Part shown: piece after piece, positions 4,139 to 52,557 of the stretch
How the letters are laid out: every line of letters starts with the position of its first letter
Position numbering within the stretch: the stretch's first letter is position 1
NCBI GenBank assembly: GCA_017991635.1
Contig: JAGOQE010000002.1
Coordinates: 35,018-99,017 of the forward strand
Direction: 5' to 3'
DNA from: Minisyncoccota bacterium
Lineage (GTDB): Bacteria; Patescibacteriota; Minisyncoccia; Phycocordibacterales; Phycocordibacteraceae
Length of the DNA stretch: 64,000 nt
Program-made: the position numbers and the translations under genes
Notes under the pieces: model-generated
Told to the model about the DNA's origin: nothing
The model's input: only the letters and a program-made list of their open reading frames with translations
Database searches by the model: none

Positions 4139-4938
4139 CGACGATTAAATTTTCGTTCGCGTCCAACCATACGTGCAAATTGAATCAGGACGATAAGGAG
4201 AATGAGTAGTGCTAGGTAAAACCAAAGTGGGGAAGAGGCAACAATCAAGAGAGCGCTCACCACGGCGTGAAGCAGTTTCTGTGCGCCTGACGCAATTTGG
4301 TCAACGAGATTCTCTTTTGCGGGAGCACCTTCTTGTGCTTGGTAATCTTCAGCTCCAAGAACTTCACCCTTAGGAGCGGTTGAACTAGCTAGAGAGGTTA
4401 GCGCGTCAACAACGCTTCCTCGAATATCTTCCGCAATATTTGATGTTGTGCTCGCTATGTCGGCAACAATAGGGGCGGTGTCGCCGAGTGTTCCTGCAAT
4501 CGTATCTACTGCAACTTGCGTGTCAGTCACGAGTTCTGATGGTGCTGGAGGGGGTAGCACTGAGACGGTCGTGGTACTTGTCTGCAGTGTGGTGAGTGGA
4601 ACCGAGCTTCCGGTAAGTCCTTCAATTTTCGCCGTGATGGAATGCTCGCCTTCGGTGGCTGCCCACGTTTGAGAAATAATTTCTGTGGTGCCAGGAGCAG
4701 CGCTCCACGGTTTGCTTCCGACTGGTTTCCCGTCCACCAAGAAAACGACTGTTCCTTGAAGGGACGATCCTGAACTGTTGTAAACAACAGTATAGATGGT
4801 CGCGCCGTCTCCTGTAATGAGGTTAGTCTTTGAAAGCCATACTGAACTTTGTGGAAAGCCTGCGGGGACGCTTTCGGCGTGGGCCTCGGGCGCTACTGCC
4901 ATAAGGAGAAGAAGAGGTATTATCCACAGACGTTTCAT
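4135..4938 (-). CDS. Secreted/cell-surface protein with signal peptide, Thr/Ser-rich region and C-terminal TM anchor
   Basis: Start set at internal MKRLWIIPLLLLMAVAPEAHA (signal peptide). Has a KGEVLGA motif before the C-terminal TM segment. Confidence 0.55.
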   Translation of the reverse strand: MKRLWIIPLLLLMAVAPEAHAESVPAGFPQSSVWLSKTNLITGDGATIYTVVYNSSGSSLQGTVVFLVDGKPVGSKPWSAAPGTTEIISQTWAATEGEHSITAKIEGLTGSSVPLTTLQTSTTTVSVLPPPAPSELVTDTQVAVDTIAGTLGDTAPIVADIASTTSNIAEDIRGSVVDALTSLASSTAPKGEVLGAEDYQAQEGAPAKENLVDQIASGAQKLLHAVVSALLIVASSPLWFYLALLILLIVLIQFARMVGRERKFNRR

Positions 4939-15561: not shown

Positions 15562-15996
15562 ATGTTCATCGGAGAATACCGTCACACTTTTGATACTAAG
15601 AATCGCGTCTCACTTCCTGCGAAGTTTCGTAAGGCTATTGGTACCTCCGTCATTGTTACTCGTGGCTTGGACCACTGTCTCTTTGTGTACTCAAAGACTG
15701 CTTGGAAGAAGGAAGCAGAGAAAATTGCTAAACACGCTACAGGAAATGCTGCTGGGCGTGGTCTTTCTCGTTTGATGCTTGCTGGCGCGTCAGAGGCTGA
15801 TGTTGATAGCGCAGGACGTATTCTTGTACCTGATTACCTACGCACCTTTGCTGGACTCTCAGACAAGGCAGTAATTGCTGGTGTGTCAGAGCGCATTGAA
15901 ATCTGGGATGAGAAGGCTTGGGAAACCTACACCAAGGCTATTGAGCGTGATGCAGATATGTTTGCAGAGACCCTCGGCACGCAAGGCGCCCTATAA
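15562..15996 (+). CDS. mraZ: Transcriptional regulator MraZ
   Basis: 144 aa; two MraZ/SpoVT-AbrB-like repeats (DTKNRVSLPAKFR...). First gene of the dcw cluster. Confidence 0.9.
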   Translation: MFIGEYRHTFDTKNRVSLPAKFRKAIGTSVIVTRGLDHCLFVYSKTAWKKEAEKIAKHATGNAAGRGLSRLMLAGASEADVDSAGRILVPDYLRTFAGLSDKAVIAGVSERIEIWDEKAWETYTKAIERDADMFAETLGTQGAL

Positions 15997-16000
15997 CAGT

Positions 16001-16948
16001 ATGAGCACGCACGTATCAGTCCTCCTTGATGAAGCAGTAGAAGCTCTCGACCTTGTAGGCGGAGATGTCGTTGTTGACGCAACTCTTGGTGGTGGGGGAC
16101 ATTTCGGCAAAATCCTTGAACGCTTGTCAGGAGAGGGAACGGCCATTGGTATCGATGCTGATCATGAAGCGATAGAGCGCGCAGAGGCTGTCTCCAAAAC
16201 CTTTGAGAGCAAAGATCTCACCGTGCATCTCGTGGAGAACAATTTCCGTAACCTAGATGAGATTCTCGACTCACTCGATATAGAAGCAATTGACGCGTCA
16301 CTCTTTGACCTTGGGTGGAGCAGTTTCCAACTTGAGCGCGGTCGTGGATTCTCTTTTAAGACAGAAGAGCCACTACTGATGACTTATGGCGAGCCTACGT
16401 CAGGAAAGACTGCAGCGGACTTAGTAAACAGTGCATCAGAGGAAGCACTCTCAGAGCTCATCTACACCTTTGGCGAAGAGCGATTTGCACGAAGTATTGC
16501 AGCAAGTATCGTCACGCTTCGCAAAGAGAAGAGCATTCTCACTACGGGTGACCTTGTTGATGCTGTGATGAAGGGAACTCCACGTTGGTACCATCATCGC
16601 CGCCTCCATCCTGCAACAAAGACCTTCCAGGCGCTCCGTATTGCGGTGAACGATGAACTACAGGTAGTTCGCGAAGGACTTCAAAGCGCACTTACCCGTA
16701 CCCGTCATGGTGGGCGTATTGCCGTGATTACTTTCCACAGTATTGAGGACCGTATCGTGAAGGGAATATTCCGTGACGCACAGTACCAGGGACTTGGCGC
16801 CTCAGTTACTAAAAAGCCGATTGCTCCTTCTGCGGGAGAAATTGCTCGTAATCCTCGAGCACGAAGCGCAAAACTCCGTGTCTTTGAACGCGGTAAGGTC
16901 GCCTCTCTTGGGGAGAAACTTACACAAAGCCGATACACCTATGCCTGA
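16001..16948 (+). CDS. rsmH: 16S rRNA (cytosine1402-N4)-methyltransferase RsmH
   Basis: HVSVLLDEAVEAL...DATLGGGGH SAM motif. Start moved to internal MSTHVSV. Confidence 0.88.
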   Translation: MSTHVSVLLDEAVEALDLVGGDVVVDATLGGGGHFGKILERLSGEGTAIGIDADHEAIERAEAVSKTFESKDLTVHLVENNFRNLDEILDSLDIEAIDASLFDLGWSSFQLERGRGFSFKTEEPLLMTYGEPTSGKTAADLVNSASEEALSELIYTFGEERFARSIAASIVTLRKEKSILTTGDLVDAVMKGTPRWYHHRRLHPATKTFQALRIAVNDELQVVREGLQSALTRTRHGGRIAVITFHSIEDRIVKGIFRDAQYQGLGASVTKKPIAPSAGEIARNPRARSAKLRVFERGKVASLGEKLTQSRYTYA

Positions 16949-17225
16949 CCGAACTATTCCACTTTTGAGTGCTACTGCCATCCTCCTCTTCGTAGGGTAT
17001 TTGGGTCTTATGGTGACCACTATTTCATTTGCAACGTGGCAGACAGAGCTTACGCGTGAAATGCGCGACACTGAAGTGCGTATCGCTTCTCTTGAGGGTC
17101 GCTACTATGACCTCATAAAGACCGTTGGAGCAGAGGACCCAAGCACCTTTGGACTTGTTGAGCCGCGCGCTGTGCGCTACGTTGCTGAGGCTTCTCGCAA
17201 TGACCTCTCACTTCGGGGGGAGTAG
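16941..17225 (+). CDS. ftsL: FtsL-like cell division protein (single TM plus coiled-coil)
   Basis: About 94 aa, bitopic, positioned between rsmH and ftsI. Start at internal MPDRTIPLL. Confidence 0.55.
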   Translation: MPDRTIPLLSATAILLFVGYLGLMVTTISFATWQTELTREMRDTEVRIASLEGRYYDLIKTVGAEDPSTFGLVEPRAVRYVAEASRNDLSLRGE

Positions 17226-17234
17226 TATGGTGCT

Positions 17235-18962
17235 ATGCGAAGAGCATTTAGAGCACGACTTCGTATCCTCATCGTAGGCGTATTTGCAGTAGCGCTCTTT
17301 CTTGTCCTTAGACTCTATTTTGTACAGGTAGTGCACCAGGAAGATTACGCGTTAAAGGCAGAACGTCAGTATGTAAGCTCAAGCGCACGTCTGTATGACC
17401 GTGGCGCTATTTTCTTTACGCGAAAGGACGGCACGCTCATTTCAGCAGCAACACTTGGAACTGGTTTCACCATTGCGATGGACCCGTCTCACGTCAAAGA
17501 CCCAGAGGCGCTCTACGCCTCTGTTTCAGCTCTCGCCACTATTGACCGTACAGCGTTTGACCAGAGCATCGCAAAGACTGATGACCCGTATGAAGTCCTC
17601 GTTAAGCAAGTTCCCGAAGACGTTGGTCAAATCCTGTCTGAGAAGAAGATTCCAGGGCTTATCATTGAGCGCAATCGTTGGCGCGAGTATCCTGCAGGTG
17701 ATATTGCCTCACAGACTATTGGTTTTGTTGCCTATGACCAAGATGTCTTGGTGGGGCGCTACGGACTTGAGCGCTACTACGAACAGACTCTGAGTCATAA
17801 CTCAGACGGACTGTTCGGAAACTTCTTTGCTGAACTGTTTGCAAGTTTGGATAACGTTCTTGCCGACGGAAAGGAGGCAAAGCAGGGAGACATCATCACT
17901 ACCATTGAACCAGTGGTTGCGGACAAACTTTCCAGCATTCTTGATGGTGTGCAGGCACAGTACGGAAGTGTTGAGACAGCCGGTATCATCATGAACCCAA
18001 AGACCGGAGAAATTATTGCTATGGAAGTGCGTCCAAGTTTTGATTTGAATAATTATCGCGAAGCAGACAGTAGTCGCTTCGCGAATCCCTTTGTTGAAGA
18101 CGTGCGTGAGTTCGGCTCCATCATGAAGCCACTCACGATGACTGCTGGCTTGGATGCTGGTGTGATTACACCGGAGACTACCTACAACGACACGGGCTGT
18201 ATTACAGTGAATAAAAGTAAAATCTGCAACTTTGACCTTCGGGGTCGTGGAGTGGTACCGATGCAACGCATTTTGTCCGACTCGCTTAATACGGGCGTAT
18301 CCTTTATTACAGGACAGCTAGGTCACGATAGATTCCGAGACTACTTTATGAAGCTTGGTTTTGGTACTGAAACAGGTATTGATTTGCCTGAGGAGACTCG
18401 AGGACTTGTAGAAAACTTGAAGAGTCCTCGCGATGTTGAGTACTACACCGCATCCTTTGGTCAGGGTGTTGCGGTGACTCCTGTTGAAATGATTCGTGCA
18501 CTCGGCTCACTCGCAAATGATGGACAAATCGTGACTCCACACTTGGTGAAATCTATTCGTCTTGAGTCAGGCATCATGAAGCAGTTGTCATGGGGTTCGC
18601 CTGAGCGAGTATTCTCTAAGGAGGCGACAGAACAAACCACGCATATGCTCGTGAAGGTGGTGGACGAGTCACTTGCACACGGCACGGTGAAAATTCCTGA
18701 AATGAGTGTTGCCGCAAAGACCGGTACGGCTCAGCTTGCCGGACCTGGAGGGAAGTACTATGAATCAAAGTACCTCCACTCCTTCTTCGGGTACTTCCCA
18801 GCGTACGACCCTGAATTTGTCATTCTCCTCTATACGCGCGAGCCACAGGGTGTACAGTATGCATCTGAGACCCTGACGCATCCCTTTATGGAGTTGACGC
18901 ACTTCCTCATCAGCTATTACGATATTGCCCCAGATAGGGCCGTATACGAAGACCCCTCGTAA
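17235..18962 (+). CDS. ftsI: Penicillin-binding protein (FtsI/PBP3-type divisome transpeptidase)
   Basis: N-terminal TM, PBP dimerisation domain and transpeptidase motifs (SIMKP, KTGTAQ). dcw synteny. Confidence 0.85.
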   Translation: MRRAFRARLRILIVGVFAVALFLVLRLYFVQVVHQEDYALKAERQYVSSSARLYDRGAIFFTRKDGTLISAATLGTGFTIAMDPSHVKDPEALYASVSALATIDRTAFDQSIAKTDDPYEVLVKQVPEDVGQILSEKKIPGLIIERNRWREYPAGDIASQTIGFVAYDQDVLVGRYGLERYYEQTLSHNSDGLFGNFFAELFASLDNVLADGKEAKQGDIITTIEPVVADKLSSILDGVQAQYGSVETAGIIMNPKTGEIIAMEVRPSFDLNNYREADSSRFANPFVEDVREFGSIMKPLTMTAGLDAGVITPETTYNDTGCITVNKSKICNFDLRGRGVVPMQRILSDSLNTGVSFITGQLGHDRFRDYFMKLGFGTETGIDLPEETRGLVENLKSPRDVEYYTASFGQGVAVTPVEMIRALGSLANDGQIVTPHLVKSIRLESGIMKQLSWGSPERVFSKEATEQTTHMLVKVVDESLAHGTVKIPEMSVAAKTGTAQLAGPGGKYYESKYLHSFFGYFPAYDPEFVILLYTREPQGVQYASETLTHPFMELTHFLISYYDIAPDRAVYEDPS

Positions 18963-18974
18963 TACCTATATTTT

Positions 18975-20261
18975 ATGAAACAAATACTCAAATCCATGGT
19001 TGCCGGTATCCTCGCCCTTTTTGCGAGAGCTATTATTCGCAAATATAAACCCTACGTAGTCATGATTACGGGTAGCGTGGGTAAGACATCCACCAAGGAT
19101 GCAGTTCACGCCGTACTCGCGTCCTCTACCTTCGTGCGTGCCAGTGAGAAGAGCTATAACAGTGAGTTTGGAGTACCGCTCACCATTATTGGCGCCAAGA
19201 ATCCCTGGAACAATCCTATTGCCTGGCTTCGTGTCTTTCACGAGGCCACCTTGCTTTTATGTACAAAAAATCATTTTCCTAAGACACTCGTTCTTGAAGT
19301 TGGGGCAGATAGACCAGGAGACCTCAAGAATATTTTAAAAATTGCCACACCAGACGCAGTCGTCGTAACAAAGCTTCCTGAAGTGCCTGTCCATGTTGAA
19401 GCGTACGCTTCTCCGAGCGCCGTTCGTGATGAGGAATTTCTCCCAGCATATGCACTTAAGTCCGGCTCTCCGCTCATCTTGAGTAGTGACGACCCCTACG
19501 CACGTGAGATGGCCTCTCGTATTCAAGCTAAGGTCACTACGTATGGCACCGCCCCTGACGCTGATGTGCGCCTATCGGAGCCACATATTCGCTTTATAGA
19601 GGATACGCCAGTTGGCATGGAAGCGACACTCACTATTAAAGGGAAGTCATATCCGCTTCAGGTAAATGGCGCTCTCGGTATTCCACAGCTCTACGCGCCC
19701 TCAGCAGCATTCGCGCTTGCGTATGAGCTTTCCATGAGTGAGGAGGATATCTTGAAAGGTGTCGCTTCCTATGTGTCTCCAGCAGGGCGGGGAAGAGTCC
19801 TTCGCGGAATCAACAACTCAGTTCTTATTGATGATACGTATAATGCCTCTCCTGCTGCAGTTGTAGAGGCTCTCAACAATCTCTCCTTTATCCCTAATCG
19901 TCGCCGTGTCGCTATTTTAGGTGACATGCTTGAGCTCGGTCGGTTCTCCATTGAGGAGCATGAGAAGATTGGAGTTCTCGCAAAAGAAAAAGCGGACGTC
20001 TTGGTTACGGTCGGTGTGCGCTCTCGGGAGACCTGCACGGCCTCAAAGAAGGCTGGTATGGAGGAAGCTGTCACACACTGCTTCGATAGTACAAAGGACG
20101 CACTAAAGGGCATTAGAGACCTCGTAGGGGAGGGTGATGTGATTCTCATAAAGGGCTCGCAGTCTATCCGTATGGAGCATATTGTTGAGACACTGCTTGA
20201 GAACCCTGATGATAGCCAGTATCTGGTCCGCCAGGATACGGAATGGAAATCTATTAAGTAG
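18975..20261 (+). CDS. murF: Mur ligase family, most likely UDP-MurNAc-tripeptide--D-Ala-D-Ala ligase
   Basis: ATP-binding TGSVGKTSTK and C-terminal IDDTYNASP motif. About 430 aa, in the dcw position after ftsI. MurE cannot be excluded. Confidence 0.65.
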   Translation: MKQILKSMVAGILALFARAIIRKYKPYVVMITGSVGKTSTKDAVHAVLASSTFVRASEKSYNSEFGVPLTIIGAKNPWNNPIAWLRVFHEATLLLCTKNHFPKTLVLEVGADRPGDLKNILKIATPDAVVVTKLPEVPVHVEAYASPSAVRDEEFLPAYALKSGSPLILSSDDPYAREMASRIQAKVTTYGTAPDADVRLSEPHIRFIEDTPVGMEATLTIKGKSYPLQVNGALGIPQLYAPSAAFALAYELSMSEEDILKGVASYVSPAGRGRVLRGINNSVLIDDTYNASPAAVVEALNNLSFIPNRRRVAILGDMLELGRFSIEEHEKIGVLAKEKADVLVTVGVRSRETCTASKKAGMEEAVTHCFDSTKDALKGIRDLVGEGDVILIKGSQSIRMEHIVETLLENPDDSQYLVRQDTEWKSIK

Positions 20262-20457
20262 AGTTTGACCACAGAGCTCACCACCTACTTCGTTACGGGT
20301 CCCAACTCGTCGCTTCACCGTACTAGAAGTACGTCTCCGCTCCTCATTCTCCCGTGCCTCGCATCTGGCGCCTCTGAAGTCAAAGGGATAATAGAGGGTT
20401 TGGGGAATAGACTTGAGAAACAGAGCAAATTGTTTTATAGTCAGAAAGTTCACAGAC

Positions 20458-20529
20458 GGCCTCATCGTCTAACGGTTAGGACAGATCCCTCTCACGGATC
20501 AAATCGGGGTTCGATTCCCCGTGAGGTCA
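20458..20529 (+). tRNA. tRNA-Glu (anticodon CUC)
   Basis: Cloverleaf folded by hand: 7-bp acceptor stem (one G-U), 4-bp D stem with a GG-containing loop, anticodon stem gatcc/ggatc with loop c-t-CTC-a-c, 4-nt variable region, T arm cgggg-ttcgatt-ccccg, discriminator A, no encoded CCA. 72 nt. Confidence 0.8.
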
Positions 20530-20541
20530 CAAATCGGCCAA

Positions 20542-20563
20542 CCCAAAAGCGTAAGCTTTTGGG
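20542..20563 (+). terminator. Hairpin directly after the tRNA (cccaaaagc-gtaa-gcttttggg)
   Basis: 9-bp stem with a GTAA loop, followed by ctgttgccgtttg. Confidence 0.4.
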
Positions 20564-20807
20564 CTGTTGCCGTTTGTAGACCTCACGGGAATCGAAGGAC
20601 GGAGGCCGCGAAGCCTTGCGAAGCAAGTGGCCGAGTCGGGCGTAGATTTTGTTGCGCGTGAGCGAGCTAGAAAATCAAGTGCAAAGCACTGCGAAATTTC
20701 AGCGGAAAATTATCTGTGGTCGATGGGCGCTCGTATTCCACACGAACGCAGTGACTCGGGAATATGCAGTCTCTTCATGAATTCACAGAAATATAAACCA
20801 CAGGCCT

Positions 20808-22931
20808 TTGACGTACAGATCAAATTTTATCCGCTATACTATATCTGTGGAATTTTTCTCGTACATTGGTTTACACACTCTATACTTGCTCGTTTTTTCT
20901 ATTGCCCTCGGGCTCGGTTTGGGTGCGTCTGCGCTGAGCCATATACTTTTTCTTTTTTCAGGTCGTGATCGAACAGTGTCGCGCGACGAGTTTAAATTGT
21001 TGAAAGTGTCGCGCATTGTGGTCTGGGTCGCAATTCTTTTGTATGGGTTTAGTGGACTAGGTCTCTTTACACTTGCGTATGAGTCGATGATTGAGCTTGG
21101 AATTTTTTACGCAAGCCTGACCATCGCAGTGATCCTTATCGGGAATGAAATTGTATTTGCTATGCGTCACCTACCTCGCGTGCGCGATATTCGCGACGGA
21201 AGGATCGCGCTCGATGCACTCGTTTTAGAAAGTGGGGCTGTATCCGCGGTCTCGTGGGTATTTTTAATGTTTCATCACACAATCTACAGGACTGATATAG
21301 GATATTTTGCATTTATGGCGCTTTACGCCGTGGCTATTGCTATTGTTATGCTTTTGACATGGACTGTACGCCGAAGAGATGCGCGCACTCACGACACAAT
21401 AGTGTTGAAGCGGTCAGTTCTTGCCGCTCTTTTTTTCGCACTTGTTTTTGCAGGTGCATGGCTCGCCAAGGCTGACAGCGTTATAAAGCCTGCCGAAATA
21501 GGAAAGCGTCTAGCCACCGAAGTTGTTGGCTCGACTTACACAATTGATGATGTTGCCCTTCATAATAATTCAGAGGATTGTTGGCTCGTCATTGATAGCA
21601 AGGTATTCAACGCGACTGAAGCGTCACGTCTTCATCCTGCAATGTTCAACTGTGGCGAGGAGGTGAGTGAGAATTATCACAAGAACCATGGCGAGGGCAT
21701 CAGAGATAAGATGATGAAGTACTACATAGGCGATCTTCGCAGCGGGAAAGGTGTAACGAATACCGACGCACCCTTCAAGAGGAACGAGACACTCAAACCG
21801 TACCGCGAGTTGTATGTTGACGAAGGATCGTGGAATGCACTTGAATTGATGCTTGTTGTTGAAAAAGATGCCGAGAAGCTCCTTGCTATCGACGGAACGA
21901 CGCACACGGTGATTGGGCGCGTGCACGATGTTGGTTTTCAGCCACACACCTCTGTCTACTCTTCGGATGCAAAATACATGTATATCATTTCTCGGGATGG
22001 ATGGCTCACGAAGATTGACCTAACTACTCTCGAGCCAGTCGCATCAGTGCTCGTAGGTGAGAATTCGCGCGGGACAGCTATCACTGATAACGATAAATAT
22101 GTTGCCATCGGCAATTACAATCCCGGGAATGTTGTTATCCTTGACGCTTCATCGATGGAAATTCTAAAAACTATACCGCTCTCGATGGAAAAGGATGGTA
22201 AACAGATTGAGTCTCGTGCGGGTGCAGTTGTCGAAGATGGAAATCGGATTATTGTTGCGCTTAAAGACGGGACCAGTGTTTGGGCGATAGATACTGACCA
22301 ATCTGGGTTCCCTGTGACGCATAAATTTTCGGACATAGGAGCCGGCAGGCCCGCGCTCCACGACGCCTTTCTCACACCAAATGGCTCGCATTATATTGTT
22401 GCATCGCAAGGATCGAAGACCGCATGGATACTTGATGTGGCGACCATGAAACCAGTTGCGGAGATAGAGACTGGCGATACACCGCACACGGGCCCGGGTG
22501 CTGCTTGGGGTAACTACATTTACATCCCGTCGTTGGGAGAGGGCCTTATTACTGTTATCGATATGACCACATGGAAGCCAGCGAAATATATAAAGACCGG
22601 CGGACCAGGTCTGTTTGTGCGGAGCTACAGTAAGGATCCGACCTATCCATATGTGTGGGCCGACACTGCATTCGGCGATCACAAGGATGAGATTTATGTT
22701 ATTGACGCGCGAGTCAATGAGATCGTGAAAACGATTATTCCGGTTAAGGGCGAAAGTTCGTGGCATCCGGAGTTCACCTATGATGGAAAATTTGTTTACG
22801 TTGTATCTCAATCTGCGAACGAAGTTGAGGTGTACGATGCGTACACCTTTGATATCGTAAAGCGCATTAAATCTGAGACACCTTCAGCGATATCTAACGT
22901 TGGCCTACGAATCGAAGAGCCAGGACTGTAA
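20808..22931 (+). CDS. Membrane-anchored fusion protein: N-terminal polytopic membrane domain, cytochrome b5-like heme-binding domain, C-terminal beta-propeller (YVTN/cd1-like repeats)
   Basis: Several N-terminal TM helices. The middle segment fits the cyt-b5 pattern (LHNNSEDCWLVIDSKVFNATEASRLHPAMF...YHKNHGEG). The C-terminal region has repeated beta-propeller-like blades. Confidence 0.6.
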   Translation: MTYRSNFIRYTISVEFFSYIGLHTLYLLVFSIALGLGLGASALSHILFLFSGRDRTVSRDEFKLLKVSRIVVWVAILLYGFSGLGLFTLAYESMIELGIFYASLTIAVILIGNEIVFAMRHLPRVRDIRDGRIALDALVLESGAVSAVSWVFLMFHHTIYRTDIGYFAFMALYAVAIAIVMLLTWTVRRRDARTHDTIVLKRSVLAALFFALVFAGAWLAKADSVIKPAEIGKRLATEVVGSTYTIDDVALHNNSEDCWLVIDSKVFNATEASRLHPAMFNCGEEVSENYHKNHGEGIRDKMMKYYIGDLRSGKGVTNTDAPFKRNETLKPYRELYVDEGSWNALELMLVVEKDAEKLLAIDGTTHTVIGRVHDVGFQPHTSVYSSDAKYMYIISRDGWLTKIDLTTLEPVASVLVGENSRGTAITDNDKYVAIGNYNPGNVVILDASSMEILKTIPLSMEKDGKQIESRAGAVVEDGNRIIVALKDGTSVWAIDTDQSGFPVTHKFSDIGAGRPALHDAFLTPNGSHYIVASQGSKTAWILDVATMKPVAEIETGDTPHTGPGAAWGNYIYIPSLGEGLITVIDMTTWKPAKYIKTGGPGLFVRSYSKDPTYPYVWADTAFGDHKDEIYVIDARVNEIVKTIIPVKGESSWHPEFTYDGKFVYVVSQSANEVEVYDAYTFDIVKRIKSETPSAISNVGLRIEEPGL

Positions 22932-22981
22932 GTCAGCACACCTCTTGCAATCGGAGCAGACGAAATATTAAACGGTCGAGT

Positions 22982-24004
22982 TTGCATGCTAAAATCCCCT
23001 CAATGCGCCCCCTACGTCTCCGCAAACTCCTCAAACGCAAACTCCCACTCCTCGTCTTCCTCATTCTCCTCGTTGTAGCTTTCTCTGTCGCATTTTATAT
23101 ATACCGAAACTCTCCCGTAGAGCCTCTAAGCCCCGAGGCATACAAAGAACTTGAGGCAAGGCTTGTAACACTTGTTGAGGACGAGGACCCGCGCGTCGCA
23201 CTCCATGCTCTACAAGAAGAAATTGATAGAAGTGAGAGTGTACTTCGCTCATGTCATGGCTTGGTACACGAAATAGGACATGAGGCATATGAGAAATACG
23301 GAGACGTGGCGAAGGCATTTTCATACCGAGACGAAATCTGCGGGGCAGGGTACATACACGGCGTGATTGAGTCCTATATGGATGATAAGGGGTTTGAGGA
23401 GAGTGAACTTTCTTCTATTTGCACTTCGTATAAAGGGGAAGATCGCGATAACTGCTTCCATGGTGTGGGGCATGGACTCATGTTCTATACGAGAAATGAT
23501 GTACCCGCGTCTATAACGTCATGTCATGCACTTACGGACGCGAAAGCACGTATGCGGTGTGCCGAGGGAGTCTTCATGGAGAACTTTGAGAGTGACGATG
23601 TCTTCCACCTCTCTGAGTATGTGGATGATAACGACCTCTTTGGAATTTGCAGGGAACAAAAAGAAATCTATCAAAAGGGTGCGTGTTACTTCTACGCACC
23701 ACTCTTTTATTTGAATGAACATGAGCGGGATTACGCCGACATGTTTGCATTGTGTAGGGAAGCTGAGGCTCCCTATATTTCTACCTGTATAAAAGGTACT
23801 TCAAGTAGGGTCACGAAGGAGAATATTGAACGCCCATCTCTAGTCTCTTCATACTGTATGAAGCAGAAAGGGTATGAGGGTGCGTGCGTTGAGGGAATAG
23901 GAAGTTACTACTATACGCACTACGGCGACACGAAAAAGGTAGAGGAACTCTGCAGTAAGGTTGCAAAGGATTATATGTCTGCCTGTACGAGCACGCTTAA
24001 GTAA
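22982..24004 (+). CDS. Hypothetical membrane-anchored Cys/His-rich repeat protein
   Basis: N-terminal TM followed by about seven spaced C-x-x-G/E-x-x-H/Y units: SCHGLVHEIGH, ICGAGYIHG, NCFHGVGHG, RCAEGVF, GACYFYAPL, TCIKGTS, GACVEGIGSYYY. Confidence 0.5.
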   Translation: MHAKIPSMRPLRLRKLLKRKLPLLVFLILLVVAFSVAFYIYRNSPVEPLSPEAYKELEARLVTLVEDEDPRVALHALQEEIDRSESVLRSCHGLVHEIGHEAYEKYGDVAKAFSYRDEICGAGYIHGVIESYMDDKGFEESELSSICTSYKGEDRDNCFHGVGHGLMFYTRNDVPASITSCHALTDAKARMRCAEGVFMENFESDDVFHLSEYVDDNDLFGICREQKEIYQKGACYFYAPLFYLNEHERDYADMFALCREAEAPYISTCIKGTSSRVTKENIERPSLVSSYCMKQKGYEGACVEGIGSYYYTHYGDTKKVEELCSKVAKDYMSACTSTLK

Positions 24005-24047
24005 AAACAGAAAAGCTCCACCAAAAGGCAAAGCCTTTCCGTAGAGC

Positions 24048-24365
24048 CTAGAAATTCCTGCGTTTTGTTCGTGTCAGTTCAGGCCAGATAGGCAGGCAGA
24101 GGACGACGATGAAAAGGAGAGCAAGGAAGGCAAGCACACTGCTTGTGGTCACGAAATAGTCACGCGGAGAGTGCTTCCAGCCAAGCCAGAAACACACACC
24201 ACAACACAAGGACCAGAAGAGGGAGTACGACCACGCGATGATTCGGTGCTGTGCCTTAGAGGCGCTCATGCGTAAGAGCGCGACTACCACAAAAACGAGA
24301 AAGAAGTTCAGTACAAACACTATAGTCCAAACGAGCACAGGAATGCTGATTCCAGCTTTTTCCAT
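24048..24365 (-). CDS. Hypothetical small polytopic membrane protein
   Basis: Start moved to the internal ATG (MEKAGISIP...), which has a GGAGGA SD 6 nt upstream. The longer GTG-started ORF in the track would overlap the divergent promoter. Confidence 0.5.
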   Translation of the reverse strand: MEKAGISIPVLVWTIVFVLNFFLVFVVVALLRMSASKAQHRIIAWSYSLFWSLCCGVCFWLGWKHSPRDYFVTTSSVLAFLALLFIVVLCLPIWPELTRTKRRNF

Positions 24366-24432
24366 AGCGTTTCCTCCAGTTTCTACCTCTACGCTATGAC
24401 CTAGAAGGCATAAAATCAAGCCCTCTAGGTAC

Positions 24433-24461
24433 TTGACTTTTGACACTATGTGTGATAATAT
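24433..24461 (+). promoter_or_regulatory. Sigma70-like promoter for the GC-rich gene: TTGACT ... TGtGATAAT (extended -10)
   Basis: TTGACT at 24433-24438. TGTGATAAT at 24451-24459 (alternatively read as TAATAT at 24456-24461 with a 17-nt spacer). Sits in an AT-rich 163-bp spacer 70 nt upstream of the 24529 ATG. Confidence 0.4.
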
Positions 24462-24528
24462 ATATGTACGTCAGGAAGGCTGACGAAGTACCTCAACATC
24501 AATCAGTTTACCTCTGGAGACGACCCAC

Positions 24529-25596
24529 ATGACCCAGTCCCAAGAAGCGCGTTTCGACTTCCCGGGTTTCAACCTGGTGAAGACGCAGGACAACGACCGC
24601 CACCAGGTGGAAGTCGGCACGATCGAGGACGGGGACCACGTGTTCACCGTCACCATGATCCGCAGCCAACAGCACCAGTTCCTCCCGTTCGCCATCTCGA
24701 CGGTGGCCGACAAGGACGGCAAAAAGATCTGGACCTTCCAGGGCGCCAAGCACGACGGTGTCGGCCTTCTGGCCTACGCCGGCGATGTGCCCGTCATCGC
24801 GCTCATCACGCGCGGCAAGGATCCCATCGTCGAGCGGGTCATTCCGCTCACTTCCCTGGTCAGCAACAAGCCCGTCGGGCTTCGTGAACTGATCAAGGGC
24901 AAGATGGGCGCCGCCATCGACCTCGACTGCCGCTACCGGCTGACCGAGGACGAGGGGAAGGTCGTCAAGATCGACGAAGGCCGGATGCACGCCGAGATGG
25001 TCCGCAAGGACCGCGAGGCGAGCGAGCGTCGGAACTCGGCCCGCGATGCGGAGAAAATCCGCAGGCAGGAAGAGGCCCGGGCACAAGAGGCGGAGCGCGA
25101 AAAGCGCGTCGCCCTGATCATGATCCGGGAAATCGTCACGGGCTACACCGCCCTGGGCGAACGGCGCTACGGCACTCCGGTCCTCGAGGCCGAGTGGCAG
25201 TCGCTTCCGAACGGCACCTTCGCCATTCTCGTCGACGCCATCGGCGAAGACGGGAAGGTCGGCAAACTGCTCGAAAGCTTCAAGATCGTGAAGCAGGCGG
25301 GCAGGCAACCGATGAAGGTGATGACCAGCCAGCTGGCCGCCAGGCAGGAAGGTCCGACGGAAATTCCGGAGGAGCTTCAGCCCACGGGCACGGTTCTGGT
25401 GGAGATCAAGGACGACTTCTTCAATGTCGGCCTCTACGCCTCCAAGGACCTGATCAACAGGGCCTGGAAGGCCGGTCTCAACGGCGGCGCCTATGTGGCC
25501 GTCGACGACCGTGACGCCGACGGCAAACTGGTCGTCTTCACCGTCACGAAGGAAACCGGCGCCAAGAAGGTCGGCTCCTTCATCCCCCTCGGCTAG
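24529..25596 (+). CDS. Hypothetical protein encoded by a strongly GC-rich (foreign-looking) ORF: two globular regions joined by a highly charged E/R-rich helix
   Basis: 355 aa; GGAG SD 9 nt upstream. The third codon position is almost always G or C (GAC, GGC, CTG, ATC, AAG, CGC...). Followed by a textbook intrinsic terminator. No family recognised. Confidence 0.6.
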   Translation: MTQSQEARFDFPGFNLVKTQDNDRHQVEVGTIEDGDHVFTVTMIRSQQHQFLPFAISTVADKDGKKIWTFQGAKHDGVGLLAYAGDVPVIALITRGKDPIVERVIPLTSLVSNKPVGLRELIKGKMGAAIDLDCRYRLTEDEGKVVKIDEGRMHAEMVRKDREASERRNSARDAEKIRRQEEARAQEAEREKRVALIMIREIVTGYTALGERRYGTPVLEAEWQSLPNGTFAILVDAIGEDGKVGKLLESFKIVKQAGRQPMKVMTSQLAARQEGPTEIPEELQPTGTVLVEIKDDFFNVGLYASKDLINRAWKAGLNGGAYVAVDDRDADGKLVVFTVTKETGAKKVGSFIPLG

Positions 25597-25645
25597 TCCG
25601 AGTACTGCACCTTAGGCCCCACCCAATTGGCCTTTCAAATGGGAA

Positions 25646-25678
25646 CCCCGTAGTCATGCGACTACGGGGTTTTGTTTT
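25646..25678 (+). terminator. Intrinsic terminator of the GC-rich gene
   Basis: Perfect 10-bp stem ccccgtagtc / gactacgggg with an atgc loop, followed by TTTTGTTTT. Confidence 0.7.
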
Positions 25679-25686
25679 ATACAGAG

Positions 25687-25717
25687 CGCCCCTGAAGACC
25701 TTCGGTCTTCAGGGGCG
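25687..25717. other. Second GC-rich hairpin (about 14-bp stem, 3-nt loop) between the convergent genes
   Basis: gcgcccctgaagacc-ttc-ggtcttcaggggcg. No clear T-tract on either strand. Confidence 0.4.
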
Positions 25718-25720
25718 TCT

Positions 25721-26035
25721 TCATTGCAGTGTCTTAAATTTTGTCGGATCAAGACCCGCAAGAACATTTATGGTGTGTTCACCAGGCACGGGCTCTGTGG
25801 GCACGTGAATCAATGCACACTCAGGAGAGAGACAGACGCCATCGCGTAGTTGCGTCAGGCACATAATGGCTCTCTCAAGCATCTCAGTAATGGCGAGAGT
25901 TGAAGCACTTTGAAGGAGGGACTTCTTTGTGCTTGTAATCACTCCGTCATAGATGACGGCACCGAAGCTTGACCCTTCAAATTCAAAGTCAAGAATCCAC
26001 GAGCCAGGTTGGTTCGGAAACAACAGGTCGTTCAT
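25721..26035 (-). CDS. Hypothetical protein (104 aa), downstream of truB on the same strand
   Basis: Host-like composition; no motif recognised. Confidence 0.45.
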   Translation of the reverse strand: MNDLLFPNQPGSWILDFEFEGSSFGAVIYDGVITSTKKSLLQSASTLAITEMLERAIMCLTQLRDGVCLSPECALIHVPTEPVPGEHTINVLAGLDPTKFKTLQ

Positions 26036-26071
26036 GGGTGTCTCCCAAGCAACGTCTAGAAAAACTCTACC

Positions 26072-26881
26072 CTAGGAAAAGCGCTTAAGCCAGAGACGAA
26101 GAAGGGGGAAGTATCTACCAATAGTTGTGCGGTGAATAGAGAGAGCGAGCCCGTTCGTGGCAAGGTTCTCTCCTATTCTTCCTGAAAGCGAACGCATGTA
26201 CGCTCCACTTCCTGAAATTACCCGTATACGAAGAACGGTAAAAGATTCCTGCGACGTAGTGGCAAAAAGTTCATCCCATGACTTCGTGATGGCATCAATT
26301 CTAAAATCGGCACCCAAATGTTTTGAAGGCTCGGTTGTCCGTGGTGTCTTATCCAAATGTTCACGTACACGCTCCATAAGCTCAGCCTTGGTGTAGGTAT
26401 TTCGCTCAATGAGACGAATAGCATAGAAGGCTTCTTGGTGTGTGGGGATGGTGATGTTTGCGAGCGTGCCTTCAAGTGCGTGTAGGAATAATGGCTTACC
26501 TGAAACAGTCTTGGAAGAAAATGCGGGGTAGGGAACTGCATGCACTCCTACAAGTGGTGTGAGCGCTTTGCGAATCTCATCGTCTGACACTGTCACGCCC
26601 TTTCCTTCGTGTGGAAGTCCAAGCACGTCCCCAGTATCGCTCCCGACACCAAGCAGTACTTCTACAATGTATTCCTTATCAAGCTTGGTGAAGTGGCGCT
26701 GGCGCTTGCACGTGTCTCCTACAAGTACGAGAAGCTTCCCGCTTGCCATAGGGTCAAGCCGTCCTGCGTAGGAGAGGCGTGTATCGTCAGGCATGGCGTG
26801 CTTCTCTTTAAGCTTCGTTACTACTTCAAGGGGCGTCTGGCCGACTTCTTTTTCAGCGATGACATAGGGAGGAAGGTTCAT
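26072..26881 (-). CDS. truB: tRNA pseudouridine synthase (TruB-like)
   Basis: Catalytic-Asp motif GRLDPMASG, 269 aa, PUA-less short form. Confidence 0.75.
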   Translation of the reverse strand: MNLPPYVIAEKEVGQTPLEVVTKLKEKHAMPDDTRLSYAGRLDPMASGKLLVLVGDTCKRQRHFTKLDKEYIVEVLLGVGSDTGDVLGLPHEGKGVTVSDDEIRKALTPLVGVHAVPYPAFSSKTVSGKPLFLHALEGTLANITIPTHQEAFYAIRLIERNTYTKAELMERVREHLDKTPRTTEPSKHLGADFRIDAITKSWDELFATTSQESFTVLRIRVISGSGAYMRSLSGRIGENLATNGLALSIHRTTIGRYFPLLRLWLKRFS

Positions 26882-47736: not shown

Positions 47737-49167
47737 CTACAGTATAGCAAGAGCTCCTTCTATGCGTGAAATGACTTCCTTGCGGGGTAGGATATGAATA
47801 AGAGTAAACGGATCGGGAGAACGCTCTTGTCCTGTGAGTGCGTATCGAAGTGGCCAGAGCACAGCTCCTCTTCCTCCGCGCTCCTTCGAAATTGAATCTG
47901 CGTATGGCATGAGGTGCGATTTAATCGTCTCTACATCAGCTAATTCAGGTAGGGAGTCAACGAGAGCCTGTAGCGCATGAAGATGCTCTCCTGTTGCGGA
48001 AGTGTCCTTCGTGGGCTCTTTGCTGACCAAGAGCTCTTTATCTAGGGTCGGAGCGTTGAAAAAGAATGAGAGCTCTGTTGCGAGCATGTCACGTGCCTCG
48101 CTAAAGGTAGCTGCCCGCTCTTTGAGGAGAGGTACAAGCATAGGTAGGAGTTCTCGGCTCGCACTCGTCTCACCGAGCTTCTCTATGTATGTCTCCTCGC
48201 TGAGAGTACGCATCCACTCACGATTAATGTGAAGTAGTTTATCTTCATCAAAACGAGCACCGCTTTTACCTATATCGGTGATATCAAAAGCTGCAGTTAT
48301 GTCCTCTAGGGAAAGTACCTCACTTCCCTCCTCTGGGTGCCAGCCAAGCAAAGAGAGGAAATTCACCATTGCGTGCGGAAGATACCCCTCAGCACGGTAG
48401 TCGAGAATATCTTTTGCGCCATCGCGCTTACTTAGTTTCTTAGTGCCTGCCTCTCCAAGAATTGGTGGCAACGTTACGAAAATAGGTGGTGGCATATCCA
48501 GTGCCTCGTACAAAGAAAGGAATTTAGGCGTTGAGGACACAAACTCGTTCCCACGCATGACGTGCGTGACACCCATCTCAATATCATCTACTACGTGAGC
48601 AAAGTTATAGGTGGGGTATCCGTCATTCTTGATTAATACAAAGTCATCAAGCGCTTCTTCGCCTGCAGAGAGTTCTCCGAGGACAGCATCCTGCCAGGTG
48701 TAGCGCACTACGCGAGGTACCTTGAAACGAAGTGTTGTTTCACCATCCCACTCACCTGCCTGCTCTGGACGATGTTCTCGGTAGAGAAACGGACGTCCTT
48801 CAGACTCTGCGCTTTTGCGAAGCTCGTCTATTTCTTCCTCAGTAAAGGGGTCAGGATATGCAAATCCGGCTTCAAGAAGACGACGTGCGTAGTCTTGATA
48901 GAGCGGTAGTCGTGCAGACTGAATGTATGGGCCATACGGGCCATCAACGTCTGGTCCTTCATCCCACTCTATGCCAAGCCAACGGAGACTCTCCATAATG
49001 TGTCCAATAGCGCCTTCAACTTCCCGTTCCTTATCGGTGTCCTCAATACGAAGAAGAAACTGACCTCCCATTTTGCGAGCGTAGAGCCACGCAAAAAGTG
49101 CGGTGCGAACACCGCCTACGTGCATAAAGCCAGTTGGACTTGGGGCGAAACGGGTACGTACACTCAT
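47737..49167 (-). CDS. gltX: Glutamyl-tRNA synthetase
   Basis: RFAPSPTGFMHVGG (HIGH) and KLSKR (KMSKS). Confidence 0.9.
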   Translation of the reverse strand: MSVRTRFAPSPTGFMHVGGVRTALFAWLYARKMGGQFLLRIEDTDKEREVEGAIGHIMESLRWLGIEWDEGPDVDGPYGPYIQSARLPLYQDYARRLLEAGFAYPDPFTEEEIDELRKSAESEGRPFLYREHRPEQAGEWDGETTLRFKVPRVVRYTWQDAVLGELSAGEEALDDFVLIKNDGYPTYNFAHVVDDIEMGVTHVMRGNEFVSSTPKFLSLYEALDMPPPIFVTLPPILGEAGTKKLSKRDGAKDILDYRAEGYLPHAMVNFLSLLGWHPEEGSEVLSLEDITAAFDITDIGKSGARFDEDKLLHINREWMRTLSEETYIEKLGETSASRELLPMLVPLLKERAATFSEARDMLATELSFFFNAPTLDKELLVSKEPTKDTSATGEHLHALQALVDSLPELADVETIKSHLMPYADSISKERGGRGAVLWPLRYALTGQERSPDPFTLIHILPRKEVISRIEGALAIL

Positions 49168-50318: not shown

Positions 50319-50343
50319 ACCTAACGTCTATAGAGTATAGCAC

Positions 50344-51435: not shown

Positions 51436-51437
51436 AC

Positions 51438-52553: not shown

Positions 52554-52557
52554 TTTC

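Follow-up and report, generated by a model that had tools for sequence, protein, structure and literature searches.

In CTXphi, two inverted att sites that lie 90 bp apart fold, and the exchange is performed by the host XerCD. For elements that target tRNA genes, accretion in which the newest arrival lies nearest the tRNA is known. Genomes of the CPR/Patescibacteria are tiny, and their mobile elements are poorly known. Here we describe a feature at the 3′ end of a tRNA-Glu gene in a 64-kb stretch of DNA (the window), together with its relatives in other contigs. On balance we think it probable that this feature is a small, non-coding, site-specific insertion cassette of tRNA 3′ ends, which would enter via att-like recombination of a folded hairpin with a recombinase acting in trans. 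Its known members occur in ultra-small bacteria of the CPR/Patescibacteria.

The cassette has its target and anchor in the gene for tRNA-Glu(CTC) at 20458-20530 (+ strand), which was called by ARAGORN and scores 59.3 bits against the Rfam tRNA model. It is intact, has no encoded CCA, and is identical in sequence to the tRNA of loci L002 and L005. A sigma-70-like promoter of the tRNA (TTGAGA, 17 nt, TATAGT; 20413-20441, + strand) has 10 of 12 consensus matches and is kept in L012, L013 and L039. When the + strand upstream of the cassette was scanned no other promoter-like site was found, so the cassette, if transcribed at all, would be transcribed by read-through from this promoter.

The left arm of the hairpin (ttcgattccccgtgaggtc, 20510-20528, + strand) corresponds to tRNA positions 54-72, that is the T-loop and the 3′ strands of the T-stem and acceptor stem, and 20515-20530 is the counterpart of the direct-repeat core TTCCCCGTGAGGTCAC of relatives. 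The preliminary description of this DNA had noticed an inverted copy of the tRNA 3′ end a short way downstream, and this was confirmed. The inverted copy of positions 54-72 (IR; gacctcacgggaatcgaa, 20579-20596, + strand) matches the left arm at 18 of 19 positions, being one G short of a perfect complement. Its 18-mer occurs once in the window against 0.05 expected, and a homologous IR is found at a similar offset (~46-48 nt past the tRNA) in L009/L011, in L010 and at the tRNA-Val of L011. It had also been stated that the downstream segment does not fold into a second tRNA, in agreement with ARAGORN and Rfam, which give one tRNA-Glu only; a second or degenerate tRNA behind tRNA-Glu was rejected as a candidate, since ARAGORN calls none.

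The long-range stem that had been proposed between the two copies is real in prediction and was, if anything, understated. Positions 20510-20596 (+ strand) form a single quasi-palindrome of 87 nt, here called the H module, with three helices and one bulged base per arm. In the outer helix the tRNA 3′ end pairs with the IR, in the middle helix acaaatcggc (20529-20538) pairs with gccgtttgt (20569-20577), and in the apical helix cccaaaagc (20542-20550) pairs with gcttttggg (20555-20563) around a GTAA loop. The tRNA and hairpin together have a predicted RNA fold of -82.1 kcal/mol (z = -8.6; none of 200 shuffles was as good), and the hairpin alone a DNA fold of -37.5 kcal/mol (z = -9.8). Compared with L012, the H module shows one compensatory change (A-U to G-C), and the loop changes from GTAA to GCAA. 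An alternative structure that affects tRNA 3′ processing had been suggested. A strong stem is predicted at the tRNA 3′ end, yet the loci with the identical tRNA (L002, L005) and L014 do without it, so that the comparison speaks neither clearly for such an effect nor against it. A terminator scan does not call the apical hairpin of the window, which precedes ctgttgccgtttgt, and the canonical terminator-type GGGCGG-TTTTT is present in the unit termed A in L012 and L013. In both the window and unit A the IR lies beyond the T-run and outside any terminator, and its G-run varies in length (3 in the window, 4 in L012, 5 in L013).

Template switching at quasi-palindromes yields exactly such extension by an inverted copy. 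A switch of the replication template at the tRNA terminator hairpin could have extended the palindrome spontaneously and left a neutral, immobile scar; in the extreme version of this reading the structure would be a matter of chance or of assembly. The inverted copy does directly extend an existing hairpin into one quasi-palindrome, the match of the arm to the local tRNA would be automatic, and the variable G-run (3, 4 or 5) is in keeping with such events, which may even be how the arm is kept or retargeted. However, template switching leaves the homologous X modules, distal direct repeats and arrays described below unexplained, as it does the similar spacing (~46-48 nt) and shared T54 end point at tRNA-Glu and tRNA-Val and the identical H module in diverged hosts. 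The chance version is excluded by the 0.05 copies expected per window and by the fold (z about -9). Independent assemblies from JGI, ENA and Logan contain the structure in diverged sequence, which excludes an assembly artefact. As the sole explanation template switching is already largely refuted, and we regard it as very improbable.

The whole cassette of the window, termed unit B, spans 20531-20786 (+ strand; ~256 nt) and consists of the rest of the hairpin, the IR, a module called X and a decayed repeat. The X module (20597-20770, + strand) is non-coding and single-copy in the 64-kb window. It contains a three-way hairpin P-a (20604-20632, + strand), a GCCGAG box (20630-20635, + strand), a degenerate and expanded hairpin P-b (+ strand; 5′ strand at ~20638-20646, 3′ strand in the box AATTATCTGTGGTCGAT at 20708-20724), and a hairpin P-c (20732-20766, + strand), after which a terminal GCAGT closes X; the hairpins are predicted by folding. 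Folded alone, 20531-20810 is no better than its shuffles (z = -1.4). The region had been described as non-coding, and as far as can be told it is, there being no conserved ORF and no Pfam match for the overlapping ORFs. The claim that it is unusually GC-rich was not borne out: 20597-20807 has a GC content of 0.512 and the window as a whole 0.489, and among windows of equal size 28% are at least as rich. The repeated GCGAAGC is indeed present, at 20608-20614 and 20618-20624, where the two copies form mini-hairpins within P-a, but with 8 copies on the + strand of the window against ~4 expected the 7-mer is not unusual, and as a hint of single-stranded-DNA biology it was set aside as weak. Searches of the window, L009, L010 and L012 against Rfam, at gathering and at permissive thresholds, gave tRNAs only, with weak matches that were inconsistent between units.

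The cassette ends in a putative distal direct repeat (20771-20786, + strand), in which ctcttcatgaattcac matches TTCCCCGTGAGGTCAC at 10 of 16 positions; transitions make up five of the six differences. In unit A of L012 a homologous ...GGAATAyGCAG is followed by a perfect repeat at the very same location, and the match in the window has P = 0.0016 at that single position, a value that is not significant without this positional homology. Because this repeat has decayed to 10/16, the window cassette is, to judge from its sequence, an old copy, and probably an inactive one at a recombination hotspot. The IR has changed at 1 of 19 positions and the distal repeat at 6 of 16 (Fisher p = 0.03), and an IR that still matches at 18 of 19 points to selection or to hairpin-templated correction against the adjacent tRNA. 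The cassette is flanked by a Mur ligase gene and a cytochrome-d1-like gene. The 3′ flank of tRNA-Glu is a variable hotspot in the clade, with truB 38 nt-1.5 kb away in relatives and 5.5 kb away in the window. A large island bounded by a distal repeat was considered and rejected, as between 20.8 and 27 kb the tRNA 3′ end has no further copy, direct or inverted, that matches at 11 of 16 positions or more.

Relatives were found by scanning metagenomes for a tRNA 3′ end followed by a gap and an inverted copy, which gave L009/L011 and L010. The sample comprises only two tRNA types from three host lineages, and an inverted copy was built into the search pattern. In these CPR metagenome contigs a common layout follows the tRNA, with a ~46-nt central hairpin, an inverted copy of 54-72, X (100-180 nt) and a direct repeat. 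In L009/L011 and L010 the gene is tRNA-Glu(TTC); hairpin, IR and X follow it in the same way, and a perfect direct repeat closes the series. About three units stand in tandem at the tRNA-Glu of L011, in an array flanked by GIY-YIG with tRNA-Ser, and units elsewhere are single or tandem. The X modules are related to each other in nhmmer searches (unit A of L012 against window positions 20694-20769, E = 1e-12; unit A against the L011 units, 8e-6; L010 against L011, 1e-3). Perfect distal repeats of 14-17 nt are present in L010, L011 (three copies at Glu, and at Val) and L012. Units range from 184 to 256 nt in length and share no common ORF, and all seven units or remnants found sit at tRNA 3′ ends. 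Comparison of these sequences shows the cassette layout, the family relationship across lineages, and differences in presence and copy number between contigs with a near-identical flanking gene or protein.

Several further ideas about the units were discarded. A target-site duplication of fixed length is not clearly supported, as the left edge of the repeat falls at tRNA position 57, 59 or 61 depending on the unit. An apparent 'mirror' truncation of the third L011 unit is actually a diverged X module without a sharp boundary. A primer-binding site for tRNA-primed reverse transcription was also rejected, as no unit has TGG (the complement of CCA) before the IR. A search for more family members via the PurD neighbourhood of L011 and via cytochrome-d1 homologues led only to the same organism or to unrelated contexts, and a full-text literature search found no description of such a cassette family.

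Differences between otherwise similar contigs provide signs of insertion. L012, whose downstream gene is 99.4% identical to that of the window, has an ortholog of unit B with 96.9% identity, and between this ortholog and the tRNA it carries an additional unit A and a perfect repeat. The identity of L012 to the window jumps from 85% to 99% at the tRNA; an assembly chimera there is possible, but it does not explain the junction between A and B. L013 and L014 encode an identical Mur ligase protein, and L013 has a unit where L014 has a plain terminator only. Filled and empty alleles are thus found (L013 against L014), as are alleles with one unit (the window) and two (L012), and the distal direct repeat of the tRNA 3′ segment is found in relatives and, at 10/16, in the window. 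Unit B is missing after the same tRNA in L002, L005, L014 and L053, and six relatives with ~40-64% Mur ligase identity and tRNA-Glu(CTC) near the ligase gene have no cassette. Several contigs terminate exactly at the tRNA 3′ end.

Over 84 nt past the tRNA, L012 and L013 are identical at 83 positions, whereas their Mur ligase and PBP DNA is merely 77-79% identical, and the similarity ends where the IR ends. The H module has evidently been transferred between these diverged hosts, as alignment of the two contigs shows. According to the preliminary description, absence of the inverted segment from close relatives would help to refute the observation. The outcome is mixed: the segment is absent at ~60% Mur ligase identity and from one contig with the identical protein, and present in others. 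Read at the level of sequence, this mixture is the signature of insertion and not noise. The suggestion of a scar of recombination at the tRNA therefore pointed in the right direction and was too weak, as the inverted copy belongs to a recurrent cassette with direct repeats that is polymorphic between contigs with identical Mur ligase.

A different view of the same data is that the units are the leftover attL and attR ends of larger, integrase-borne islands that have lost their interior, the inverted copy being part of a former attP region. Direct repeats of a tRNA 3′ end are a classic mark of integration by an integrase, old partial tRNAs pile up at hotspots, and the tRNA-Glu 3′ flank is such a variable hotspot in this clade, to judge from the distance to truB. 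The units, at 184-256 bp, are about as long as a complete attP. In L058 (tRNA-Glu) and L011 (tRNA-Ser), moreover, large serine recombinase genes have their ends within a tRNA gene. However, independent internal deletions would not repeat one layout with a homologous X in three lineages and at two tRNAs, nor would they be expected to leave different units in tandem (A then B in L012; u1 and u2 in L011) or an H module identical at 83 of 84 positions in hosts that are 21-23% diverged. No integrase remnant was found inside or beside any unit, and the module that adjoins the serine recombinase of L058 has no similarity to X. We consider remnants of islands unlikely. As a mobiliser of the cassette the serine recombinase was rejected too, since the modules that flank it in L011 and L058 are unrelated to X and there is none in the window.

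Further searches concerned a recombinase and an origin. Pfam recognises no domain of an integrase, transposase or recombinase in the 57 larger ORFs of the window (~100 aa or more), and the ORFs without annotation beside the tRNA, also compared with PHROGs, have no integrase or transposase. No integrase or recombinase gene lies inside the element. Viral contigs that were pattern-scanned for the cassette gave zero or chance matches only, and BLAST against phage and plasmid records found nothing related.

Alternatively, the cassette could act above all as a structured non-coding RNA that is produced when transcription from the tRNA promoter reads through, and that regulates or exploits tRNA maturation. 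The IR would then have two possible partners, the tRNA 3′ end and the direct repeat downstream, and with the latter a 12-14-bp minihelix resembling the acceptor stem and T-stem would close X and could be excised by tRNA-processing enzymes. Several observations agree with a function as RNA. The + strand folds better than the - strand in five of five units. P-b has 17 pairs in relatives, of which five are changed on both sides, with an invariant G-U and a bulged A. The apical loops GTAA and GCAA are both of GNRA type and the change between them is accompanied by a compensatory change in the stem. In units 2 and 3 of L011 the IR reads GGCCTCA, as does the real 5′ acceptor strand, including its G-U with position 71. 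In unit A a 23-nt hairpin sits within the IR at the junction of acceptor stem and T-stem, where positions 8-48 leave the real tRNA. Upstream of the cassette, the + strand offers no promoter-like site besides that of the tRNA. Yet a structured RNA leaves the direct repeats, the tandem arrays and the presence or absence beside an identical Mur ligase unexplained, and the complement of the T-loop in the IR has no role in the minihelix. In the window the helix between IR and distal repeat is broken (10/16), a state common to L012, and the window X is no more stable than shuffles and has no Rfam match. The earlier idea of the 5′ part of an unannotated structured RNA holds in so far as the next 175 nt belong, in diverged form, to a conserved hairpin module, in which P-b varies in a compensatory way in relatives, but the window copy is degenerate. 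As a primary explanation structured RNA is doubtful; as a secondary property it is compatible with the cassette and does not replace it.

A second tRNA type allows the arm to be compared with its target. The unit at tRNA-Val(GAC) of L011 is 88% identical to the Glu unit in X and 84% identical in the central hairpin. Its IR pairs with positions 54-72 of tRNA-Val at 16 of 19 positions without gaps (~2e-5 by chance), and its distal repeat matches tRNA-Val at 14 of 14 positions before the native terminator follows. Alignment thus shows the inverted arm to fit the resident tRNA at both tRNA types seen, Glu and Val. One tentative reading of this fit is that the 19-20-nt arm serves as a nucleic-acid guide. 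The elements would then be protein-less and programmable, with an arm, either RNA or folded single-stranded DNA, that specifies its tRNA target by pairing to a recombinase or nuclease acting in trans, and that could be re-set from Glu to Val while X is kept. The arm does differ between Glu and Val in L011 while the scaffold X is kept, but these are two targets only, and passive hairpin-templated correction gives the same result. If the arm is a guide, CPR bacteria would harbour a new class of mobile element that is non-coding, directed by a guide and homes to tRNA genes.

For the insertion cassette that we favour, a folded-hairpin att mechanism of the CTXphi/integron type is most likely, and for this we infer both the enzyme and a single-stranded intermediate. 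A circular single strand would fold into a hairpin with a target-like stem and integrate through it, and the single strand exchange, once resolved by replication, would give the order site, loop, inverted site, body, site. The cassette would bring a replacement tRNA 3′ end (from about position 59 to 73), leaving the tRNA intact, as well as the ~46-nt central hairpin (terminator-like in some members), the inverted 54-72 and X with two or three conserved hairpins. The displaced original 3′ end would remain as the direct repeat at the far end of the cassette. Newer cassettes would enter at the tRNA and shift older ones outward, giving tandem arrays. Candidate enzymes, to be supplied in trans, are a host Xer-like recombinase, a serine recombinase or an HUH enzyme; that no recombinase domain was found in the window fits such a supply, as in CTXphi. 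The paired changes in P-b and the better fold of the + strand also agree with the cassette. Two points run against the folded-att model. The hypothetical excised circle would have a stem of only 14-16 bp, and the part of the IR that complements the T-loop (TCGAA) would be without a partner in this circle, so that the model leaves its retention unexplained. Against the cassette in general count the negative searches of viral contigs, phage records and plasmids, the dependence of the distal repeat in the window on its position for significance, and the fold of the window X, which is no better than shuffles.

A cassette of ~200 nt that encodes no protein and homes to tRNA 3′ ends would rank among the smallest site-specific mobile elements known, and it would restore the tRNA that it interrupts and build arrays. 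Such cassettes also have practical consequences. Their hairpins break metagenome assemblies exactly at tRNA genes, and strains come to differ in ways that may be taken for noise or for partial tRNA genes.

Compared with known systems, the cassette resembles MITEs, REPINs, Correia, RUP/BOX and Rickettsia palindromic elements in being small, non-coding and intergenic, with a long imperfect hairpin and presumably mobilised in trans. MITE/REPIN-type repeats have tens to hundreds of dispersed copies, terminal inverted repeats and short target duplications; the cassette is single-copy in 64 kb and found at tRNA 3′ ends only, and its arm is derived from the target. A 19-20-nt stretch complementary to the target beside a scaffold of 100-180 nt recalls elements with guide RNAs, such as the omega RNAs of IS200/IS605 TnpB/IscB and the bridge RNAs of IS110. 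Those elements, however, do not duplicate 14-17 nt of their target, and bridge-RNA guides are short and split across loops. No Pfam domain of TnpB, IscB, TnpA or the IS110 recombinase, and so no cognate nuclease or recombinase gene, was found in the window, and there was no match to an RNA family in Rfam.

The cassette also resembles integron cassettes and attC sites. Both form arrays of short units with an imperfect, bulged palindromic site and a recombinase outside the cassette, the sequence of the site varies while its structure is kept, and modules are shuffled at the base of the hairpin. Where integron cassettes carry an ORF, however, the body here is a hairpin-rich non-coding module; the array has a tRNA gene as its anchor, and the stem copies the target. 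The base of the hairpin reads TTCGATT.../...AATCGAA(A/G) with G53 unpaired, and has no AAC/GTT pair as in the attC cores RYYYAAC/GTTRRRY; intI, attI and a cassette promoter were not found beside the array in the window or in the L011 flanks. Elements that target tRNA genes (prophages, ICEs/IMEs, cis-mobilizable elements, tycheposons) share insertion at the T-loop and 3′ end, restoration of the tRNA by a copy on the element, a displaced 3′ fragment as direct repeat, and successive integrations that displace older ones outward. They differ in being kilobases long and in encoding, or having once encoded, an integrase. We know of none with an inverted tRNA 3′ end hairpin, or in the form of a conserved non-coding unit of ~200 nt.

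The cassette is not an IMEX of the CTXphi type in the strict sense, as its target is a tRNA 3′ end and not dif. It also differs in size, with 184-256 nt that are wholly non-coding compared with several kilobases for those phages, and in that its inverted arm runs 5 nt past the duplicated core. No filamentous-phage genes lie near the cassette, and a role for Xer is proposed here by analogy. Both have two inverted, target-like sites that can form a hairpin and lie tens of nt apart (left arm and IR are separated by 30-50 nt), neither carries an integrase, and both leave the conserved chromosomal site usable for the next element, giving tandem arrays of related or satellite elements, as in L011 and L012. 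The integrated order of site, loop, inverted site, body and site is as predicted, by a derivation of our own. Together, the target-matched arm suggests that the folded-hairpin recombination logic of integrons and the cholera toxin phage may also operate at tRNA genes or, alternatively, that targeting is directed by a guide.

The only tRNA encoded by the window is a tRNA-Glu(CTC) (20458-20530), and the preliminary description had reported an inverted copy of its 3' end just downstream. This copy is real: ttcgattccccgtgaggtc at 20510-20528 (tRNA positions 54-72) has its reverse complement, short of a single G, at 20579-20596, and the window contains this 18-mer one time where 0.05 would be expected. 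Because complementarity extends inwards (acaaatcggc/gccgtttgt) to an apical hairpin, cccaaaagc-GTAA-gcttttggg, the whole of 20510-20596 is a single 87-nt quasi-palindrome. The tRNA-hairpin region folds far better than shuffled sequences, with z = -8.6 for RNA and z = -9.8 for DNA. The unusual GC richness ascribed to the DNA that follows did not hold up (GC 0.512 vs 0.489 window-wide, with 28% of equal-sized windows equally rich), and the downstream 280 nt folded alone are not better than shuffles (z = -1.4). An Rfam scan matched only the tRNA.

Upstream of the tRNA lie mraW, ftsI and a Mur ligase gene (MurF in source databases) (15875-20261, + strand), and downstream a gene for a membrane protein with cytochrome-b5-like and cytochrome-d1-like domains. 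The closest genome matches are Paceibacterota MAGs (~60% identity), the host belonging to the CPR/Patescibacteria. No integrase, transposase or recombinase domain was found in the 57 larger ORFs of the window (about 100 aa or more). A tRNA-Glu(CTC) is found near the Mur ligase gene in six relatives (ligase ~40-64% identical to that of the window), directly downstream of it in four and with an identical sequence in two. Comparison of the locus gave a divided answer, as all six lack the inverted copy (a plain terminator stands there in L005, for instance) and the closer relative L012 keeps it. truB, in relatives the conserved downstream neighbour of tRNA-Glu at a distance of 38 nt to 1.5 kb, is 5.5 kb away in the window (26072-26881, - strand), and 20531-26071 is therefore a variable islet.

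The islet holds the cytochrome-d1-like gene and four ORFs without a Pfam or PHROG match, and a search of it for a distal att-like repeat found none. A 355-aa ORF there without Pfam or PHROG matches (24529-25596) has three internal repeats ~300-350 nt apart and is probably a repeat-domain protein. The start codon of the gene following the tRNA is most likely GTG 20847, the one called in L012, rather than the TTG 20808 of the ORF finder; with a TATACT box 5 nt 5' of this GTG and no visible Shine-Dalgarno sequence, its mRNA may be leaderless. The stop codon of the Mur ligase gene is separated from the tRNA promoter by ~150 nt of non-coding sequence (20262-20411, no Rfam match), which is present in three compared loci (L013, L014, L039) and missing from L012 and the 60%-identity relatives, which have ~50 nt there. 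The cell-division/cell-wall (dcw) cluster is split, with mraW, ftsI and the Mur ligase gene ending at the tRNA and mraY, ftsW and murG ~29 kb away (49164-53619, - strand), a split that suggests an old rearrangement, one of whose breakpoints was at the tRNA-Glu locus.

L012, whose Mur ligase is 93% identical to that of the window, carries past the same tRNA a new cassette (unit A), a direct repeat that matches the tRNA 3' end perfectly, and a second cassette (unit B). The latter is orthologous to the unit in the window (96.9% identity), differing by one compensatory change in the apical stem and by GCAA for GTAA in the loop. Of L013 and L014, which encode an identical Mur ligase protein, the first has a hairpin of the unit A type behind the tRNA and the second only a plain terminator. 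Several contigs stop exactly one base past the tRNA, as expected of a polymorphic junction. At the site of unit A's perfect repeat, unit B in both the window and L012 ends ...GGAATATGCAGT then ctcttcatgaattcac. As ctcttcatgaattcac matches the direct repeat at 10/16 positions (P = 0.0016 at that single position), with transitions making up five of the six differences, we read it as an old, decayed repeat, and with this as outer edge the window's cassette spans 20531-20786. The inverted arm has changed at 1/19 positions and the distal repeat at 6/16 (p = 0.03). In the L012 tandem the intact repeat flanks the copy nearest the tRNA, and the window's copy is old and probably inactive.

The cassettes are also modular, and their hairpin part has moved horizontally between diverged hosts. 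Between L012 and L013 the Mur ligase and PBP DNA is only 77-79% identical, but the 84 nt past the tRNA (central hairpin and arm, the latter interrupted by a 23-nt hairpin) are identical at 83/84 positions, and similarity collapses exactly where the arm ends. The inserted hairpin, agcacgacttgggaagtcgtgcg, is perfect (L012 4448-4470; L013 about 4599-4621) and splits the unit A arm exactly between the acceptor-stem and T-stem complements, where nucleotides 8-48 leave the real tRNA. Window 18975-22931 and L012 3001-7021 are 84-86% identical upstream of the tRNA and 97-99.4% downstream (third codon positions 66% and 98.7%). Either recombination or transfer had a breakpoint here or the L012 assembly is chimeric, and in both cases the A-B junction of L012 is unaffected.

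A metagenome scan for a tRNA 3' end, 25-55 nt and an inverted copy matched three contigs from two further lineages (L010; L009/L011). In these a tRNA-Glu(TTC) is followed by a long hairpin, its central part unlike the window's in sequence, then by the inverted copy gacctcacggggaatcgaa, by a module of ~100 nt rich in hairpins (X) and by TTCCCCGTGAGGTCAC, which is a direct repeat, without mismatch, of the tRNA 3' end; in L011 the 184-nt unit stands in ~3 tandem copies. By nhmmer, X is homologous across the lineages (L012 unit A vs window, 1e-12; unit A vs L011 units, 8e-6; L010 vs L011, 1e-3). The modules share a fold in which the first hairpin (P-a) is variable and the second (P-b) is long; P-b has 17 pairs, five of them changed on both sides, together with a G-U that never varies and a bulged A. 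The + strand folds better than the - strand in all five units, which agrees with a structured RNA made by read-through and carrying a tRNA-like minihelix; such an RNA is at odds with the broken helix of the window and with the polymorphism between strains.

A tRNA-Val(GAC) in L011 bears the same kind of unit, with a central hairpin 84% and an X 88% identical to those of Glu unit 1. Its inverted arm, ggtgtGGTAGAGGACTCGAA, pairs without gaps at 16/19 positions of tRNA-Val 54-72 (chance about 2e-5), the Val-specific T-loop base among them, and its distal repeat, CCTCTACCGCCCAC, matches at 14/14 before the native tRNA-Val terminator. Arm complementarity stops at T54 in both Glu and Val units, and the arm begins ~46-48 nt past the tRNA in the window, L009, L010 and L011-Val despite differing intervening sequences. 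Spontaneous palindromes formed by template switching may account for the arm's continued match to its tRNA, but leave X, the repeats and the arrays unexplained.

We also considered that the units are deletion remnants of larger islands, as the tRNA-Glu flank is a hotspot and serine recombinase genes adjoin tRNA genes in L011 and L058. In the relative L058 (2139-6638) a tRNA-Glu(CTC) is followed directly by a 130-nt GC-rich hairpin module, with a second copy, 100% identical and inverted, across a large serine recombinase gene whose 3' end enters the tRNA antisense. The cytochrome-d1-like gene there lies between 298-nt inverted repeats (100% identical), and many 2199-nt contigs carry only that gene, starting exactly at TCGATTC of a T-loop-like motif. 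The arrangement resembles a cassette system, invertible or mobile, at the same hotspot. L011 (10833-11180; 11384-12926) has a copy of tRNA-Glu 1-35 and an 87-aa GIY-YIG ORF upstream of the real tRNA-Glu, into which the ORF runs, apparently through a separate small insertion by which the tRNA 5' half was duplicated. A 497-aa large serine recombinase gene in L011 ends within tRNA-Ser(CGA).

The existence of a family of small cassettes is well supported: they are non-coding, occupy tRNA 3' ends by site-specific insertion and each bring a replacement 3' end. The mechanism we infer is integration of a circular single strand through a folded hairpin att site, which would give the order site, loop, inverted site, body, site. 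The model is CTXphi, which has no integrase of its own and forms tandem arrays; there a fold is made by two inverted att sites separated by 90 bp, the XerCD of the host exchanges one strand pair and replication finishes the process. Integron attC sites work in a related way. Against this specific mechanism, the stem of an excised cassette circle would be only 14-16 bp, and the T-loop complement of the arm would lack a partner in it. It is unlikely that the inverted arm is a true guide; if it were, the family would be categorically new.

We found no description of such a family in the literature, no match in Rfam and no member in viral contigs, phage records or plasmid records, and a dispersed MITE was rejected as its identity. 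The cassettes share the att-repeat logic of tRNA-targeting integrative elements, which are known to accumulate with the latest arrival closest to the tRNA, but carry no integrase. Although they lack the defining sequence and enzyme features of IMEX and integron cassettes, it is these that they most resemble in their working.
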